Source: an uncultured Pseudomonadales bacterium | Lineage (GTDB): Bacteria; Patescibacteriota; Microgenomatia; UBA1400; PJMF01 | Assembly: GCA_964633875.1 (NCBI GenBank) | Contig: CAZWKL010000004.1 | Span: 1,971 to 65,970 of the forward strand | Length of the DNA stretch: 64,000 bases | Direction of reading: 5' to 3' | In this document: piece by piece, positions 30,162-37,220 of the stretch | Layout: every line of letters begins with the position of its first letter | Numbering within the stretch: the stretch's first letter is position 1 | The notes under the pieces: model-generated | The model's input: the letters and a program-made list of their open reading frames with translations, nothing else | Told to the model about the DNA's origin: nothing | Database searches by the model: none | Program-made: the position numbers and the translations under genes

Positions 30162-30172
30162 GTCGAGTATTG

Positions 30173-30246
30173 TACCAGGGGTGGGATTCGAACCCACGAC
30201 CTTTGGTTTATGAATCCAATGCTCTAACCAACTGAGCTACCCTGGC
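30173..30246 (-). tRNA. tRNA-Met (anticodon CAT), elongator type (could alternatively be a lysidine-modified tRNA-Ile2)
   Basis: Cloverleaf GCCAGGG acceptor stem, D arm GCTC/GAGC, anticodon loop TTCATAA, T arm GGTCG-TGGGTTCGAATCCCA-CGACC. G1-U72 pair. CCA is not encoded. Confidence 0.75.
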
Positions 30247-30404: not shown

Positions 30405-30473
30405 CGCGGGATAGTGTACGGTGCACGTGAGGCTCATAATCTCACAGGCTAGGTTCGACTCCTAGTCCCGCAA
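30405..30473 (+). tRNA. tRNA-Met (anticodon CAT), probable initiator tRNA-fMet
   Basis: Acceptor CGCGGGA/TCCCGCA with a C1·A72 mismatch, the bacterial initiator hallmark. Anticodon loop CTCATAA, T arm CTAGG-TTCGACT-CCTAG. Upstream promoter TTGCAC-17-TATAAT. The anticodon stem lacks three consecutive G-C pairs. Confidence 0.65.
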
Positions 30474-30481
30474 CACTTAAA

Positions 30482-31424: not shown

Positions 31425-32291
31425 ATGTCAAAAACTTTAGCAGATGCCCAGGCTCTCTATGAAGATCATCTGAGGGGCGAAGGGAAAGCCAATGCCACGG
31501 TTATTGCTTACACTAAGGATATTGAGCAATTAATTGAATTTGTGGGCAAAAAAGGCAAAACTCAGGTTGATGAAGTCAATCAAAATGACATTGAAGAGTT
31601 CAAAGAGAATCTTAAAAAACTCCGCTACACTGGCAAATCTATCTCCAGAAAAATTAACTCAATTAAGTCTTTTTTCCGCTTTCTGATTGCAGAAGGCCAC
31701 ATCGACTCCAATCCCGCCGACGAAATTGCTCATCCCAGATTTGAACAAACTCCCCCACGTGTGCTTTCCAAAGTGGAGTACCGCGCCTTGCGTGACGCCT
31801 GCAGAGGCGATTCTCGCATGGCCGCCATTGTCGAGCTGTTGCTCCAAACCGGCATGAGGATCAGTGAGCTGGCCAATTTACAAATGTCCGACCTCGATTT
31901 CGACCGCAATGTCATTTACATCCGCACCCAAAACTCCCGCGAGGCCCGCAAAGTGCCACTCAATGACGCGGCCAAAAAAGCCCTGATGGATTACCTGGAA
32001 TCCAGGCCAAGAACCAAAGAAAAAATGGTTTTTCTCACCAAAACCTGCCGGCCTTTTTTGGTCAGGAACATTCGCACCGCTATCGACCGCTACTTCAGGT
32101 TGGCAGGCATCAAAGACGCCAAGGTCAACGACCTGAGGCACACTTTCGTGATCGAGCAGCTCAAAGCCGGCACGCCGCTGGTGTATGTTTCCCAGTTGGT
32201 GGGCCACAAGAGAATTACCACCACCGAAAGATATCTCAAGTTGATCGAACAGCCTGAAATGGAACCCAATATTCAAATTGAGGAACTTTAA
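31425..32291 (+). CDS. Tyrosine site-specific recombinase, XerC/XerD-like
   Basis: N-terminal SAM-like core-binding domain and a catalytic domain with R...HxxR...Y (LRHTF, HKRITTTERY). Start set at the ATG at 31425. Lies about 1 kb from two tRNA genes. Confidence 0.8.
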   Translation: MSKTLADAQALYEDHLRGEGKANATVIAYTKDIEQLIEFVGKKGKTQVDEVNQNDIEEFKENLKKLRYTGKSISRKINSIKSFFRFLIAEGHIDSNPADEIAHPRFEQTPPRVLSKVEYRALRDACRGDSRMAAIVELLLQTGMRISELANLQMSDLDFDRNVIYIRTQNSREARKVPLNDAAKKALMDYLESRPRTKEKMVFLTKTCRPFLVRNIRTAIDRYFRLAGIKDAKVNDLRHTFVIEQLKAGTPLVYVSQLVGHKRITTTERYLKLIEQPEMEPNIQIEEL

Positions 32292-32294
32292 GCT

Positions 32295-32384
32295 ATGTTT
32301 TCACCGATGATCAACCAAATTATCACCCAACTGGCTTGGTGGCGAGACTCTCTCAGCTTCGTGAGGGCAAGTTGGTGGCGCTAA
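32295..32384 (+). CDS. Putative trpS leader peptide with two Trp-Trp pairs
   Basis: ATG 3 nt after the xerC stop with GAGGAA 10 nt upstream. Encodes MFSPMINQIITQLAWWRDSLSFVRASWWR (4 Trp in 29 aa). Its TAA lies 23 nt before an intrinsic terminator and 92 nt before trpS. Confidence 0.5.
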   Translation: MFSPMINQIITQLAWWRDSLSFVRASWWR

Positions 32385-32430
32385 ATTTCATTTAGTTTCA
32401 TAGCCAAAGCTCCCTCACGGGAGCTTTTTT
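32355..32430 (+). promoter_or_regulatory. Transcription attenuator: antiterminator (AGCTTCGTGAGGG) versus terminator (AGCTCCC-TCAC-GGGAGCT-T6)
   Basis: Segment 32355-32367 is complementary to 32412-32425 (CCCTCACG, then a bulge, then AGCT), which comprises the terminator loop and 3' arm. The two structures are mutually exclusive. Confidence 0.55.
32407..32430 (+). terminator. Intrinsic terminator upstream of trpS
   Basis: AAGCTCCC-TCAC-GGGAGCTT followed by TTTTT. Confidence 0.7.
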
Positions 32431-32475
32431 ACGGTCCATTTTACGATACAATAGCAAAATAATAAGGAAAAATTT

Positions 32476-33459
32476 ATGAAAAAACGAGTCTTATCCGGCA
32501 TTAGATCCACAGGCAAACTGCACTTAGGTAATTACTTGGGTGCAGTTAAAGGCATGATTGATCTGCAAAACAACCCGGATTACGAAACTATCTACATGGT
32601 GGCTGATGTGCACACCCTCACCACGCCATATGATATCGAGGCCCTCAGGCAGAACCGCCGCGAGATTATTGTAGATTACTTGGCGGCCGGTTTGGATCCG
32701 GAGAAAAGCATTTTATTTCAGCAGGCTAACGTGAGTGAGCATCTGGAGTTGGCTTTCTACTTTGCCTCGGTAACGACAGTGGCCAAGATGCAACACCTGC
32801 CGACTTTTAAGGACAAGGTGAAACAACACCCTGATCATGCCACCTTGGCTTTGCTCAATTATCCGATGTTGATGGCGGCCGATATTCTGATTTACAAAGC
32901 CTCTTTGGTGCCGGTGGGCCTTGATCAGGAGCCGCACTTGGAGGCCACCAGGCAAGTAGCGCGCAAGTTCAACCAGGTTTATGGCACCGATTTTCCCGAA
33001 CCGCAGCGTTTTACCACTCCAGGTGAGTACGTGCCCTCACTTACCGGCGAAGGCAAAATGAGTAAATCGGTGCCGGGTAGTTACATCAATCTGGTTGATG
33101 ACTTGGCAACGATCCAGAAAAGAATTGCCGCCGTGCCGACCGATTCAGGCCAAGGTGATCTTATTCCTCAGAGCGGTGGGGTAGCTGGTTTGCTGACTTT
33201 GGTGGAGTTGATTGAGGGCCAGGAACAGCGCCGTCAATATGAAGAGCAGTACCTTGGCGCGGGTTTGCGCTATGGTGAGCTGAAAAAGCAGTTGGCTCAG
33301 GCCATTTATGATGAGCTGGCTTCATTTAGGGAAAAGCGGGCCGAGATGATGGCCAATCCCGATTATGTAGATGCAGTGATCGTTGAAGGCGCCAAAAAAG
33401 CTCAGGCTATTGCTGGAGCTACTTTGGCAGAAGTTAAAGAAAAAATTGGCCTAGTTTAA
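32476..33459 (+). CDS. trpS: Tryptophan--tRNA ligase
   Basis: Class I HIGH-like (TGKLHLGNYLG) and KMSKS motifs. 327 aa. Confidence 0.9.
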   Translation: MKKRVLSGIRSTGKLHLGNYLGAVKGMIDLQNNPDYETIYMVADVHTLTTPYDIEALRQNRREIIVDYLAAGLDPEKSILFQQANVSEHLELAFYFASVTTVAKMQHLPTFKDKVKQHPDHATLALLNYPMLMAADILIYKASLVPVGLDQEPHLEATRQVARKFNQVYGTDFPEPQRFTTPGEYVPSLTGEGKMSKSVPGSYINLVDDLATIQKRIAAVPTDSGQGDLIPQSGGVAGLLTLVELIEGQEQRRQYEEQYLGAGLRYGELKKQLAQAIYDELASFREKRAEMMANPDYVDAVIVEGAKKAQAIAGATLAEVKEKIGLV

Positions 33460-33486: not shown

Positions 33487-33819
33487 ATGAAACCAAGTAT
33501 TAACTTTGAAGATTTCATGAAGCTGGATATTCGCGCGGCGACAGTGCTTGCCGCTGAAGAAATAGCCGGCGCGGACAAACTTTATCAGCTCACTTTAGAT
33601 GTGGGCGAGTTGGGGGAGCGGACAGTAGCAGCCGGCATTAAAGCCTGGTATAGTGCTGAGGAACTGGTGGGCAAGCAAGTAGTTTACTTGGCCAATCTGG
33701 AGCCGCGCTTGCTTAGAGGAGTGGAAAGCCAGGGCATGATTTTGGCGGCGGACAATGAAGAGTCAGCTGTTCTCCTCACTCCGGAAACCGCGGTTGTTAG
33801 TGGAGCGCTGGTCAGATAA
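33487..33819 (+). CDS. csaA: tRNA-binding protein (CsaA/Trbp111/Myf-domain OB-fold)
   Basis: FMKLDIRAATVLAAEEI...KLYQLTLDVGE...SQGMILAA matches the EMAP/CsaA tRNA-binding domain. Confidence 0.7.
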   Translation: MKPSINFEDFMKLDIRAATVLAAEEIAGADKLYQLTLDVGELGERTVAAGIKAWYSAEELVGKQVVYLANLEPRLLRGVESQGMILAADNEESAVLLTPETAVVSGALVR

Positions 33820-33920: not shown

Positions 33921-36900
33921 ATGGAAAAAAACACTCAAAAACCGACCGAACAAGCTCATAAATCCAACCAGAAAATTGTTCCTTCCATGTCTAAAAATCC
34001 CGTTAAAAAAACTGGTGCTAATGGTACTAATGGTGCTAAGAAAAACGACCAGCTGCTGCCAAAAATTGAGATGCCCATGAATGTGAACAATATTTACAAC
34101 AAGGGTCTTTTATATTTTATCCTGGGCACCATAGCGATGATTTTCTTTTTCTCGCTTTTTTCCTCTGAGCCGGCGCAAGAAATTTCTATCAGCGAGCTGG
34201 TCCAGGATATTCGGAACGAGCAGGTTGAAAAGATTGTTGTTTCCGGCGATGAGTTGCGCGCCACTTACTCGGACGAGAGTTTGCGCACTGTGCAGAAGGA
34301 ATCAGGCCAGAGCGCCGTGGAAATTTTTGAAGCGGCCAATCTTGATCTGGCCGAGGTTGAGCTTGAGGTGGAAGCTTTTTCGTTTGGCTCGATGATTTGG
34401 GAATTGGTGATCAGTTTGTTGCCGATTCTGTTGATGATCGGCTTTTTCTTTATTATTTTCCGTCAGGCTAAGGGCGGCCAGGCCGGCATTATGGGTATTG
34501 GCAAAAGCAAGGCGAAGCTGTTTGTTAAAGGCAAGCAGAACACTAGTTTTAATGATGTGGGTGGAATGGATGAGGCTAAAAAAGAGTTGGAAGAGGTAGT
34601 CGACTTTTTGAAAAATCCCAAAAAGTATGCCAAAGTTGGCGCCCGCACACCCAAAGGCGTGCTTTTAGTGGGCCCAGCCGGCACAGGCAAATGTGTCACA
34701 GGAGATACTATTGTTTGGACCAACAAAGGCTTGATGGAGATTAGGGAAATTCCCCGCTATTACTACGTTGATCCGCAATCGCATCAAGTTGCGGGAGCCG
34801 GATTGACTAGTTTTAACCTTGAAGACACTGTTGCCACCGATCAGCTTGCCTCACATTGGTACGATTTGGGTGAGCAGGAAACCATTAAGGTACAACTTAA
34901 ACAGGGTCTTTCTCTTGAGGGCACGCCAGAGCATCCGGTGGTGGTGATGACAAGTGAAGGTAAATTGAAATTTCGCCAACTCAAAGATCTGCAATTGGGT
35001 GATCAATTAGCAATTCAGTATGGCAGCCAGGCTTTTGGCAATCTTGATTTGGTAGATGAAGATACAGCGTACTTGATGGGGTTGCTAACGGGAGACGGCA
35101 ATATGAGCCACTCAAGTCGGGTTGGTTTGACCAACATCGACGATGAGATCATCACCTTTTTTAAACGGTTCGTTCTCGAAAGGTTTGGCGAAGCCAAGTT
35201 AACCAAGAACAATCAATCTTACCTAGTTTCTAATTGGGATTTTAAGCGCTATCTCTACCAGATGGGCATGTCCTACTTGCTCTCTTTTGACAAAGCAGTT
35301 CCTCCGACTATTCTCCAGGCTAAGAAAGCAGTGCAGGTCAAATTTTTACAGGGGTTATTTGATGCTGATGGGTCTATTGGCAAAACTCGGGCTGAGTTTG
35401 AGTACACTACCGTTAGCGAACGGATGGCACGACAGGTGCAGATGATGCTTTTGAATCTTGGGGTAGTGGCGAGTCTGAATGAGAAAGGCAGGGTTGCCAA
35501 CGGTTACAAGCGCCCTGTGTACAGAATTACTCTCACCGGGGATAGGTTGAAGGTCTTTGGCCAGCAGGTAGGTTTCATGCTCACCAGAAAACAACAGTTG
35601 CTCGAAGCTCATCTTGATAAGAAATTGAGCAGCAATACCAACATCGATATCATTCCTGGTATTTCACAGCTAATGGTGGAGGCCTGGACGAGCCTATCTG
35701 AGCAGCAACTCAGCCATGAAAAACTATCAAAGACAATTGATAAAGTTAGAAGAAGGTTGCGCGTTTCTAGAAACACCTTGACAGAGTTTGTGCGCTATTG
35801 TTCGGCGCTGGCTATCGAAGTGCCTCACCTCGAGTATCTGCGCAGTTTGCTTGAAGCCAACTTATTCTTTTCTCCAGTGGTGCAGATTCAGCCAGCCTAC
35901 AACCGCGTGTATGATTTTACTGTACCCAAGACCCACAGCTTTTTAGGTAATGGACTGATTAACCATAATACTCTGTTGGCCCGCGCAGTTGCCGGGGAAG
36001 CCAACGTTCAGTTTCTTTCGATTGCCGGCAGTGAGTTTATGGAGATGTTGGTGGGTGTGGGGGCTTCTCGGGTGCGGGATCTTTTCACTACGGCTAAAAA
36101 ATTGGCGCCCTCGATTATTTTCATTGATGAAATTGATGCGATTGGCCAAACCAGAGGTAAGGGGAGTTTTGGCGGCCATGACGAGCGCGAGCAGACTCTC
36201 AACCAAATCTTGGTAGAAATGGATGGCTTTGATCAAAACGACAACGTTATTGTCATGGCCGCCACCAACCGCGGCGACATGCTCGACGCTGCCCTGATTC
36301 GCCCAGGCCGCTTCGACCGGCGGGTGATGGTGCGCTTGCCCGATCTGGAAGAGCGCAAGTACATTATTTCCATCCACGCCAAAGGCAAGCCTTTTGCCAA
36401 AGAAGTGAAGTGGGAGAGAGTGGCCAAAAGAACGGTCGGTTTTTCAGGCGCCGATATCGAAAACATGCTCAACGAAGCCGCCATTGCGGTTGCTCGCGAA
36501 TCCAGAAAAGAGATTACCATGGAGGACATCGAAGAAGCGGCGCTCAAGGTTAAGTTAGGACCGAGTAAGAAACAACTTTCCAGCAAACTGGAGCGAACCA
36601 TGACGGCTTATCACGAAGCCGGCCACGCTATCGTTGCTCATGCTTCAGCCCATGCCGACGCAGTCACCCGGATTTCTATCGTTTCCCGCGGTCATGCCCT
36701 GGGTTTTACCGTCAGCTCTCCCGAGAGAGACAAGTTCCAAACCACTAAGTCGGAGTTACTTGATCGTATTACCGTTCTGCTTGGTGGCCGGGCGGCGGAG
36801 CAGATGATCTTCAATGAACAAACCGCCGGCGCAGGCAACGACATTGAAAGAGCCACCAGAATTGCCAGAGCCATGGTGGTGGAATACGGCATGAGTGAGT

Positions 36901-37220
36901 TGGGAGCCATGAACTATGCCCCGCTCTATGACAACGCCGATTATGGCAGATCCTGGAACGAACCACTGAGGATTTCTGACCGCTTGCAGGAGAAGGTTGA
37001 TGAGCAGGTTAATAAAATTATTCAAGAGGGTGAAAAACGGGCTGCTGAGCTCCTTAAAACTCATAAGAAAAAGCTGGATAAAGTTTCCAATCGATTGCTG
37101 GAAATAGAAACCCTTGATGGCGATGAGTTTGCCAGACTGATGGGTTTCAAAAAAATCAAAATTGATGACGCTTACGACTTAGCTGAAAACGGTACCAATG
37201 AAAGCGAAGACGAAGCTTAA
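33921..37220 (+). CDS. ftsH: ATP-dependent zinc metalloprotease FtsH, interrupted in-frame by an intein in the Walker A motif
   Basis: N-terminal TM pair, AAA module split as GPAGTGK | intein | [20 protein letters not shown] zinc site and a C-terminal helical region are present. 1099 aa total (673 aa without the intein). Confidence 0.85.
34692..35969 (+). mobile_element. Intein (426 aa) with a LAGLIDADG homing endonuclease domain, inserted after the FtsH P-loop Lys
   Basis: Block [10 protein letters not shown] and block B TPEHPV. Two LAGLIDADG motifs ([20 protein letters not shown]). C-terminal VYDFTV...LINHN with +1 Thr. Precise excision would restore [15 protein letters not shown]. Confidence 0.8.

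Follow-up and report, generated by a model that had tools for sequence, protein, structure and literature searches.

The DNA analysed here is a window of 64,000 nucleotides (nt; contig CAZWKL010000004.1, assembly GCA_964633875.1) from a Microgenomates-type patescibacterial genome, and the element in question lies between two of its genes, an xerC-like gene for a Xer-type tyrosine recombinase and trpS, the gene for tryptophan--tRNA ligase (Table 1). Three nt beyond the xerC-like stop codon, an ATG (32295) opens a 29-codon open reading frame (ORF) with two tandem Trp-Trp (WW) pairs, and the 9-mer TTGGTGGCG is duplicated within it, with copies at 32336 and 32372, as an earlier sequence-only reading of the locus had claimed. 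The ORF stops 23 nt before the AGCTCCC that begins an intrinsic terminator hairpin (AAAGCTCCC-TCAC-GGGAGCTTT at 32406-32427, predicted at -13.7 kcal/mol on its own), whose T-run extends to 32430 and ends 45 nt before the trpS ATG (32476). A general terminator scan omitted the 32406-32430 hairpin, a scanner artefact that arose because the stem was counted into the T-run, leaving too few T. The leader element was identical across three independent assemblies, and the positions that the earlier reading had given for the xerC stop, the GAGGAA motif, the ORF, the WW pairs, the hairpin and the trpS ATG all agree with the sequence. The element has several of the features by which its regulatory class is recognized, namely an upstream ORF with Trp codons, a predicted intrinsic terminator, a mutually exclusive antiterminator and a matching stall geometry. 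We consider it likely that it is a classical ribosome-mediated leader-peptide attenuator, which would sense charged tRNA-Trp and gate read-through from the xerC/leader transcript into trpS.

The computed behaviour of the leader RNA is in line with such a switch. Explicit ribosome-footprint masks were placed on the full transcript, the RNA was folded, and the probability of the terminator, P(terminator), was calculated. The free leader RNA (-40.7 kcal/mol) is predicted to form the terminator, with a P(terminator) of approximately 0.63, together with an anti-antiterminator helix (32327-32337/32365-32375) that adds to the first description of the locus. This helix encloses a small hairpin (32341-32358) and would sequester part of region 2, the 5' strand of the antiterminator, as long as no ribosome is stalled. 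With the RNA masked up to 13 nt past W16, P(terminator) falls to 0.00 and 32355-32373 pairs with 32408-32425, the antiterminator fold having a minimum free energy (MFE) of -30.6 kcal/mol versus -26.9 kcal/mol with the terminator forced. The segment AGCTTCGTGAGGG (32355-32367), for which the earlier reading had noted a complement at 32412-32425, matches 32412-32418 and 32420-32425, and exactly this pairing is predicted once region 1 is masked. A footprint at the second WW pair or at the stop codon returns P(terminator) to 0.9-1.0 (approximately 1.0 with 32361-32389 masked), so that folding with ribosome footprints supports the mutually exclusive antiterminator and terminator folds proposed before. 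Because a ribosome at the second WW pair covers region 2 and favours termination, this pair, whose role had been left unclear, is, according to the model, not a second starvation sensor. In the mechanism that we propose, the window leader would be translated off the xerC transcript, through its Shine-Dalgarno-like sequence or by termination-reinitiation. At low levels of charged tRNA-Trp the ribosome would stall at W15/W16 and leave region 2 free, and the resulting antitermination would give more trpS mRNA; with enough charged tRNA-Trp it would proceed to W27-W28 or the stop codon, region 2 would be covered and transcription would end at the T-run.

Table 1. Features of the xerC-trpS interval in the 64,000-nt window (window coordinates).
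Feature	Position	Strand	Basis
xerC-like Xer-type tyrosine recombinase gene, 288 aa	31425..32291	+	Pfam Phage_integrase and SAM-like domains; 288-aa call on identical contig
Shine-Dalgarno-like GAGGAA, within xerC codons E-E, 9 nt 5' of leader ATG	32280..32285	+	sequence
Stop codon of xerC-like gene	32289-32291	+	sequence
Leader ORF, 29 codons and stop, MFSPMINQIITQLAWWRDSLSFVRASWWR-stop	32295..32384	+	sequence; stop codon 32382-32384
Anti-antiterminator (1:2), CCAACU/GCUU (32327-32337) with GGGC/AGUUGG (32365-32375)	32327..32375	+	MFE, free leader RNA
Regulatory Trp codons W15-W16, TGGTGG, proposed stall site	32337..32342	+	footprint folding and family conservation
Region 2, antiterminator 5' strand (AGCUUCGUGAGGG and AGUU)	32355..32373	+	MFE pairing with 32408-32425, region 1 masked
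Second WW pair W27-W28, TGGTGG	32373..32378	+	ribosome here covers region 2 (footprint folding)
Spacer hairpin (GGCGCUAAAU-UUC-AUUUAGU...AGCC) holding leader stop codon	32376..32406	+	in both conformations; identical in L001
Intrinsic terminator AAAGCUCCC-UCAC-GGGAGCUUU (regions 3 and 4) and T-run	32406..32430	+	predicted; kept in L001
-10-like box TACAAT, context CGATACAAT (32444-32452), candidate separate trpS promoter	32447..32452	+	same place in relatives
trpS Shine-Dalgarno AAGGA	32464..32468	+	sequence
trpS, tryptophan--tRNA ligase, 327 aa, downstream of attenuator	32476..33459	+	Pfam tRNA-synt_1b; NCBIfam TIGR00233

The assignment of trpS is firm (NCBIfam TIGR00233, 284.9 bits versus a cut-off of 176.75), and the product of 31425..32291 matches the NCBIfam XerC, XerD and XerA models with scores under their equivalog cut-offs. 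We assembled 168 trpS loci (designated L001 and so on). At 95% TrpS identity they fall into 121 clusters, and 113 lineages were usable in the clustering on which the element was counted. All TrpS relatives come from metagenome-assembled genomes (MAGs) of Patescibacteria, also known as the candidate phyla radiation (CPR), of the Microgenomates type (Pace-, Woese-, Levy- and Roizmanbacteria), and share the gene order DivIC - xerC - trpS - tRNA-binding protein - ftsH. The protein search found one lineage at 92% TrpS identity (L001) and all others at 74% or less, while a metagenome scan for closer relatives returned none above approximately 73% TrpS identity. The leader element was detected in 23 of the 113 lineages; L002, L029 and L047 were added afterwards, and we give the family total as at least 24. 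In the family as a whole, the element consists of a promoter, a mini-ORF with Trp codons and a terminator, and stands before trpS, before trpB-trpS or before a racemase gene and trpS.

Many divergent homologues keep the Trp codon or codons and the switch despite extensive sequence change, as a comparison of relatives, of the kind suggested by the earlier reading, makes apparent. In L156, the closest informative relative (74% TrpS identity), the leader (MNIEHLQSAAWWLQYFSSRGALLWRK-stop) lies directly before trpS with a TATAAT box of its own and the terminator GCTCCC-CCAC-GGGAGC, and the WW pair, a distal Trp codon, the terminator and the switch are all retained in a sequence that differs from that of the window. 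Other leaders before trpS are those of L063/L109 (MTQLQLTTKAWWNSLI-stop), L065 (MKNIQTTTSRMWWTS-stop) and L072 (MITLQIQLAWWQTLQQ-stop), as well as that of L160, which has one Trp codon; homologous elements also directly precede trpS in L095, L025 and L045, and in L002 the leader ATG comes right after the xerC stop, as in the window. A WW pair or single Trp at the equivalent of W15-W16 is the best-conserved feature of the family and anchors its alignment, and beyond the Trp codons and the codons that overlap RNA helices the peptides are poorly conserved. At the position of the second WW pair L001 has a TGA stop and L156 a single Trp codon, and many members have a distal Trp close to their stop codon (WWTTSLWR-stop and WWTSRYLWQCG-stop among them).

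In most relatives, a -10 box precedes the leader ATG by 6-11 nt (for example, TGCTATAAT, TGTTATAAT, TGATATAAT, TATACT or TTGACA-N17-TAAAAT), and their leaders begin after this strong box with no Shine-Dalgarno sequence (L065:2590-2611, L072:2447-2461, L095:1255-1271, L012:1527-1566, L156:1335-1349 and others). With so short a distance between -10 box and ATG, the leader mRNA of these relatives would be leaderless or nearly so, and the attenuator peptide would be made by leaderless translation. The window, L001 and L002 have no such box; their leader ATG is preceded by GAGGA(A/G) and separated from the xerC stop by 1-3 nt, an arrangement that in L002 reads GAGGAG, then TAA, G and ATG. Since only 3 nt separate the leader of the window from the xerC stop, we infer that it is co-transcribed with xerC and translated from that transcript, with GAGGAA presumably acting as a ribosome-binding site or as a site of termination-reinitiation.

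Several further observations concern the architecture of the related leader regions. In L065 (2730-3000), two segments that resemble each other and can each fold into a hairpin (GGGTCC...GGACCC and ATGGACCC...) lie in the approximately 290 nt between terminator and trpS, with no Rfam match above threshold, and a tandem, terminator-like second hairpin follows the attenuator terminator in L067 (2163-2190) and L034 (1487-1507). L034, L106 and L145 have a second Trp-containing mini-ORF (...INWNCSRYLWQG...) before trpB. Single-Trp leaders with a working computed switch were found 0.7-1.3 kb upstream of trpS in L026 (1690-1813, MQQYQLTIVSWHSTLS-stop) and L047 (2195-2314, MQHYQLILKGWYSA-stop); the first ORF listed 3' of the L026 leader is uncharacterized and encodes 63 amino acids (aa).

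Taken alone, the leader ORF is not beyond chance. In the long ORFs of the window, 1.0% of residues are Trp, but TGG accounts for 2.1% of all trinucleotide positions, and among the 243 ATG-initiated ORFs of 20-45 aa in the window, nine have at least four Trp codons and two have two WW pairs; TTGGTGGCG also occurs at two unrelated window sites. The earlier argument that four Trp in 29 residues is improbable is accordingly weaker than it was made out to be, and the significance of the ORF derives from its position and conservation and not from its Trp content. These counts, the z-score of only -1.3 for the fold of the whole 201-nt region and the sub-threshold Rfam match described below would all suit a chance ORF beside an ordinary xerC terminator, in which Trp codons and complementarity coincide by accident. 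The comparative data already contradict this explanation, which we regard as extremely improbable. An nhmmer profile of eight family members (alignment A3, window excluded) matched the window at 32307-32430 over its full length (model positions 1-111, E=1.3e-5), by which we assign the window element to the family, and the conserved Trp codon that anchors the family alignment likewise speaks against coincidence. An unbiased scan of 1.68 Mb (all loci and the window, both strands) for ATG-initiated ORFs of 8-45 aa with an in-frame WW pair, ending at most 100 nt before a strict terminator, gave 17 matches, all on the trpS strand and all adjoining trpS or trpB. When a single Trp codon was accepted and a computed switch demanded, 22 such combinations were found on the trpS strand versus none on the opposite strand, with terminators nearly equal in number (119 versus 121).

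Randomization of the sequences points the same way. Only seven of 1000 shuffles of the window spacer, in which the unmasked spacer alone was permuted, disrupted the terminator as completely as the observed sequence, a frequency that the chance explanation does not account for. In seven trpS-adjacent lineages, a stall at the Trp codon abolished the terminator in all seven and a footprint at the stop codon restored it in six, with spacer-shuffle p values of 0.007-0.073 (Fisher combined p = 3e-6); in the wider family, the switch flipped in 15 of 17 lineages and then in 5 of 7 further ones. In an alignment-free swap test, each spacer paired with the 5' arm and loop of its own terminator at a mean of -13.2 kcal/mol and with those of other lineages at -8.8 kcal/mol, a result matched by none of 20000 permutations and again contrary to coincidence; the window spacer ranked its own terminator second of 24. 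By this test, antiterminator and terminator co-vary from lineage to lineage and have co-evolved.

The genes that follow the leader in related genomes tie the element to tryptophan. Several scan matches lie approximately 1.35 kb upstream of trpS, before a 400-aa gene for the beta subunit of tryptophan synthase (TIGR00263, 565 bits), the order there being xerC - leader/terminator - trpB - trpS, and a leader-trpB-trpS order occurs in eight lineages; since the same element precedes trpB in related genomes, we link it to tryptophan. In L108 and L137, the leader comes after trpS and before a TrpB-like gene. A stand-alone trpB directly upstream of trpS is found in many Patescibacteria (27 loci with matches), often after the same Trp leader (for example, L012:1716-2915, L014, L021, L028, L034, L038 and L149). 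No TrpB-like sequence is present in the 64-kb window, so that trpB is absent between its leader and trpS, and the window arrangement is most likely derived from a leader-trpB-trpS operon after loss of trpB. The proposal that trpS is preceded by attenuation of the E. coli trp type, which had been made for the window alone, is thus supported by footprint folding, divergent homologues, the co-variation in the swap test and the linkage to trpB.

Other genes also occur beside the leader. Three lineages carry an Asp/Glu-type racemase gene of 236-246 aa between leader and trpS (L029:2264-3004, L042:2270-3004, L067:2230-2940), with the racemase stop overlapping the trpS start in L029 and L042 and the L042 copy matching PF01177 and TIGR00035. 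Its product could be a Trp racemase, used for D-Trp salvage and placed under Trp control. Before trpB in L014 (1271-1522) and L038 (1301-1552), an 83-aa ORF resembling TrpR either ends at the leader ATG or overlaps it; the L014 copy matches PF01371 with 73.7 bits and TIGR01321 with 61.9 bits, just under the cut-off of 67.25, and the L038 copy is similar in sequence. Repression and attenuation may therefore both be present at these two loci.

Beyond the unremarkable Trp content of the ORF, several findings weigh against an attenuator that controls trpS. In L001, the nearest relative, the second WW pair has become a stop, an insertion separates the leader ORF from the terminator and a switch is no longer predicted. 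Among relatives at 72-73% TrpS identity, several lack a leader and have an xerC-trpS spacer of just 64-75 nt. The loci L078/L082 keep the xerC-proximal hairpin without the leader ORF, a pattern that the sequence-only reading had named as speaking against its own proposal; it is seen in one lineage, and the lineages in which hairpin and ORF occur together, at least 24 in number, outweigh it. The promoter scan lists none for the window leader within 900 nt upstream, and inspection of the 40 nt 5' of its ATG revealed no -10 box. After the terminator, a -10-like box (GGTACAAT, GGTATAAT or TGTATAAT) is found at the same place in relatives with or without a leader, the same type of box that precedes the leaders of L026 and L067, and, given this conserved box, most trpS expression may not depend on the attenuator. 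Alignment covariation was uninformative, as RNAalifold found just four nearly invariant pairs in the MAFFT alignment A3, namely the 2:3 pairs GGGA/UCCC; since the helices are misaligned, and conserved within the main subfamily, the swap test was used in its place. Finally, when transcripts that stop short of region 4 were folded at equilibrium, the antiterminator formed in 5 of 7 lineages even with no ribosome stalled, and the switch would therefore depend on kinetics and ribosome position. With respect to the conserved box, the TACAAT at 32447-32452 probably gives trpS a basal, unregulated transcription, to which the attenuator would add starvation-inducible read-through without being the sole control.

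The insertion in L001 is itself of some interest. It spans 167 nt (684-850) and resembles a miniature inverted-repeat transposable element (MITE), with 22-nt terminal inverted repeats (GAACTCATTGCAAAATTCTAAT ... ATTAGAATTTTGCAATGAGTTC) and GGCG flanks. No copy of the MITE-like terminal repeat was found in the window.

Much of this counter-evidence can be read as the decay of a system that has lost its purpose. The element could be a relic of trpB (or trpB-trpS) control, its hairpin now serving only as the xerC terminator, trpS running on the TACAAT promoter and the mini-ORF without any regulatory role. The order leader-trpB-trpS in eight lineages supplies the ancestor that such a history calls for, and the erosion in L001 (Trp codon to stop, MITE-like insertion), the close relatives without the element, the hairpin-only L078/L082 and the -10-like box kept with or without a leader are what it would leave behind. 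Neutral decay would, however, erase the Trp codon or codons, the terminator and the matching antiterminator, all of which are retained in at least ten strongly diverged lineages that have no trpB, and the window copy still gives a clean computed switch. In addition, trpB-less L065, L072, L095, L156 and L025 have a dedicated promoter for a unit that consists of nothing but leader and attenuator before trpS. We therefore judge a relic to be unlikely for the window and retain the cis-acting attenuator as the preferred reading.

In many relatives, leader and terminator form a self-contained unit with its own promoter. In L065 and L072 the unit is separated from trpS by hundreds of nt, and in L026 and L047 it precedes apparently unrelated small ORFs. 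This raises the alternative that the terminated leader RNA, the 29-aa peptide or both act in trans, with cis control of trpS secondary, after the manner of rnTrpL and peTrpL of Sinorhizobium. The trpL of Sinorhizobium meliloti is an independent transcription unit. As described in PMC7968998 and PMC7298713, this attenuator precedes trpE(G), includes a small ORF and releases a short attenuator RNA, and the trans functions shown for rnTrpL/peTrpL provide a precedent. Nothing in the window element indicates a function of this kind: the peptide sequence is poorly conserved beyond the Trp codon or codons and the codons overlapping the helices, there is no known target, and the consistent linkage to trpS, trpB and the racemase gene fits cis control. 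An action in trans accordingly appears very improbable to us, and attenuation in cis is the reading on which the following comparisons are based.

Among the known systems closest to the element is the trpL leader of E. coli. The two share a short ORF with tandem Trp codons, the pairings of regions 1:2, 2:3 and 3:4, a terminator with a U-run, and the release of region 2 by a stall at the Trp codons. Trp_leader (RF00513) is also the best Rfam match of the window (20.8 bits, E=0.22, 32331-32432), and this match aligns the WW pair and the terminator; the score lies under the gathering threshold of 41 bits, and membership of RF00513 was rejected on this ground, the relatives L137 and L012 reaching 26.0 and 24.5 bits. 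Unlike trpL, the window element precedes an aminoacyl-tRNA synthetase gene and not biosynthesis genes, its 29-codon leader extends across region 2 and contains a second WW pair, its host belongs to the Patescibacteria and its translation appears to be coupled to xerC.

Control of aminoacyl-tRNA synthetase genes by attenuation has itself been described elsewhere. The pheST operon of E. coli, which encodes an aminoacyl-tRNA synthetase, is regulated by leader-peptide attenuation through cognate codons. The scheme is the same as that proposed for the window; pheST responds to another amino acid, is proteobacterial and has no sequence relation to the window element. Leader-peptide attenuators have been predicted for trpS genes of Streptomyces, including trpS2 of S. 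avermitilis, with pheST as the gamma-proteobacterial analogue (Seliverstov et al. 2005, PMC1262725), and that of trpRS1 in S. coelicolor was shown experimentally (Vecchione & Sello 2010, J Bacteriol 192:3565, as cited in PMC4787780). As in the window, a Trp-codon leader and a terminator/antiterminator stand before trpS, and the logic proposed for the window, more tryptophanyl-tRNA synthetase at low charged tRNA-Trp, is the same. The enzyme of the 2010 study is, by the title of that paper, an auxiliary and antibiotic-resistant one, whereas the window trpS is the only one seen in its locus, stands in the housekeeping synteny xerC-trpS-tRNA_bind-ftsH and belongs to an unrelated phylum; the comparison with Streptomyces is by description and not by sequence.

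Two further classes of trp regulator were considered. The T-box that precedes trpS in Firmicutes shares with our element the input (tRNA-Trp charging) and the output (terminator versus antiterminator) but binds tRNA directly, whereas the window element would sense it through translation of the mini-ORF. A T-box or other known riboswitch was rejected, as Rfam gave no match to one: no T-box was found at E<=10 in 31800-33000, none at gathering thresholds across the window, and none in 15 related loci. Attenuation by the trp RNA-binding attenuation protein (TRAP), as in Bacillus, relies on approximately 9-11 (G/U)AG triplets spaced by 2-3 nt and overlapping the antiterminator. By inspection, without a formal scan, 32295-32432 contains few and scattered GAG/UAG triplets in no regular array, and this candidate was likewise rejected.

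Some features of the surroundings deserve mention. Directly 3' of trpS, in a position kept in the relatives examined, a gene for a 110-aa protein with a tRNA-binding domain (PF01588) occupies 33487-33819. It is followed at 33921-37220 by a gene for an FtsH of 1099 aa, split by an intein with a LAGLIDADG homing-endonuclease domain according to Pfam Intein_splicing and LAGLIDADG_3 matches on the identical gene in L155 and L166; the FtsH of relatives at 72-74% TrpS identity has 628-675 aa and no intein. Two tRNA-Met (CAT) genes on opposite strands (30172-30246, minus; 30405-30474, plus) are 160 nt apart and precede xerC by approximately 1 kb, and a 5S rRNA gene is located at the window start (160-277, plus).

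Patescibacteria have tiny genomes that lack most amino-acid biosynthesis, and little regulation is presumed in them. Our literature search, pairing Patescibacteria or CPR with attenuation, with riboswitch and T-box, or with tryptophan synthase, found no paper, and no patescibacterial study was among those listed for attenuators and leader peptides. On sequence comparison, the window element is the first representative of its own new sequence family in Patescibacteria, the kind of regulator being well known; the proposed mechanism is textbook, and the surprise lies in the host group and the regulated gene. More tentatively, and with less confidence than in the attenuator itself, we suggest that a so far undescribed Trp regulon of mostly leaderless attenuators might extend across Microgenomates-type Patescibacteria and control stand-alone trpB, a possible D-Trp racemase and trpS. 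In the lineage of the window, this might have come down to attenuation of the sole housekeeping trpS, with a leader coupled to xerC and a distal WW pair as a 'parking' site that would keep the ribosome on region 2 and make termination sharper when charged tRNA-Trp is at intermediate levels. The family points to genes used against Trp limitation, namely trpS, stand-alone trpB and the racemase gene, and makes available, from an uncultured lineage, an RNA switch that is compact and testable. If our reading is true, it would imply that CPR bacteria, reduced and symbiotic as they are, sense amino acids and couple transcription tightly to translation, and a conserved Trp attenuator would show that these organisms monitor the charging of tRNA-Trp.

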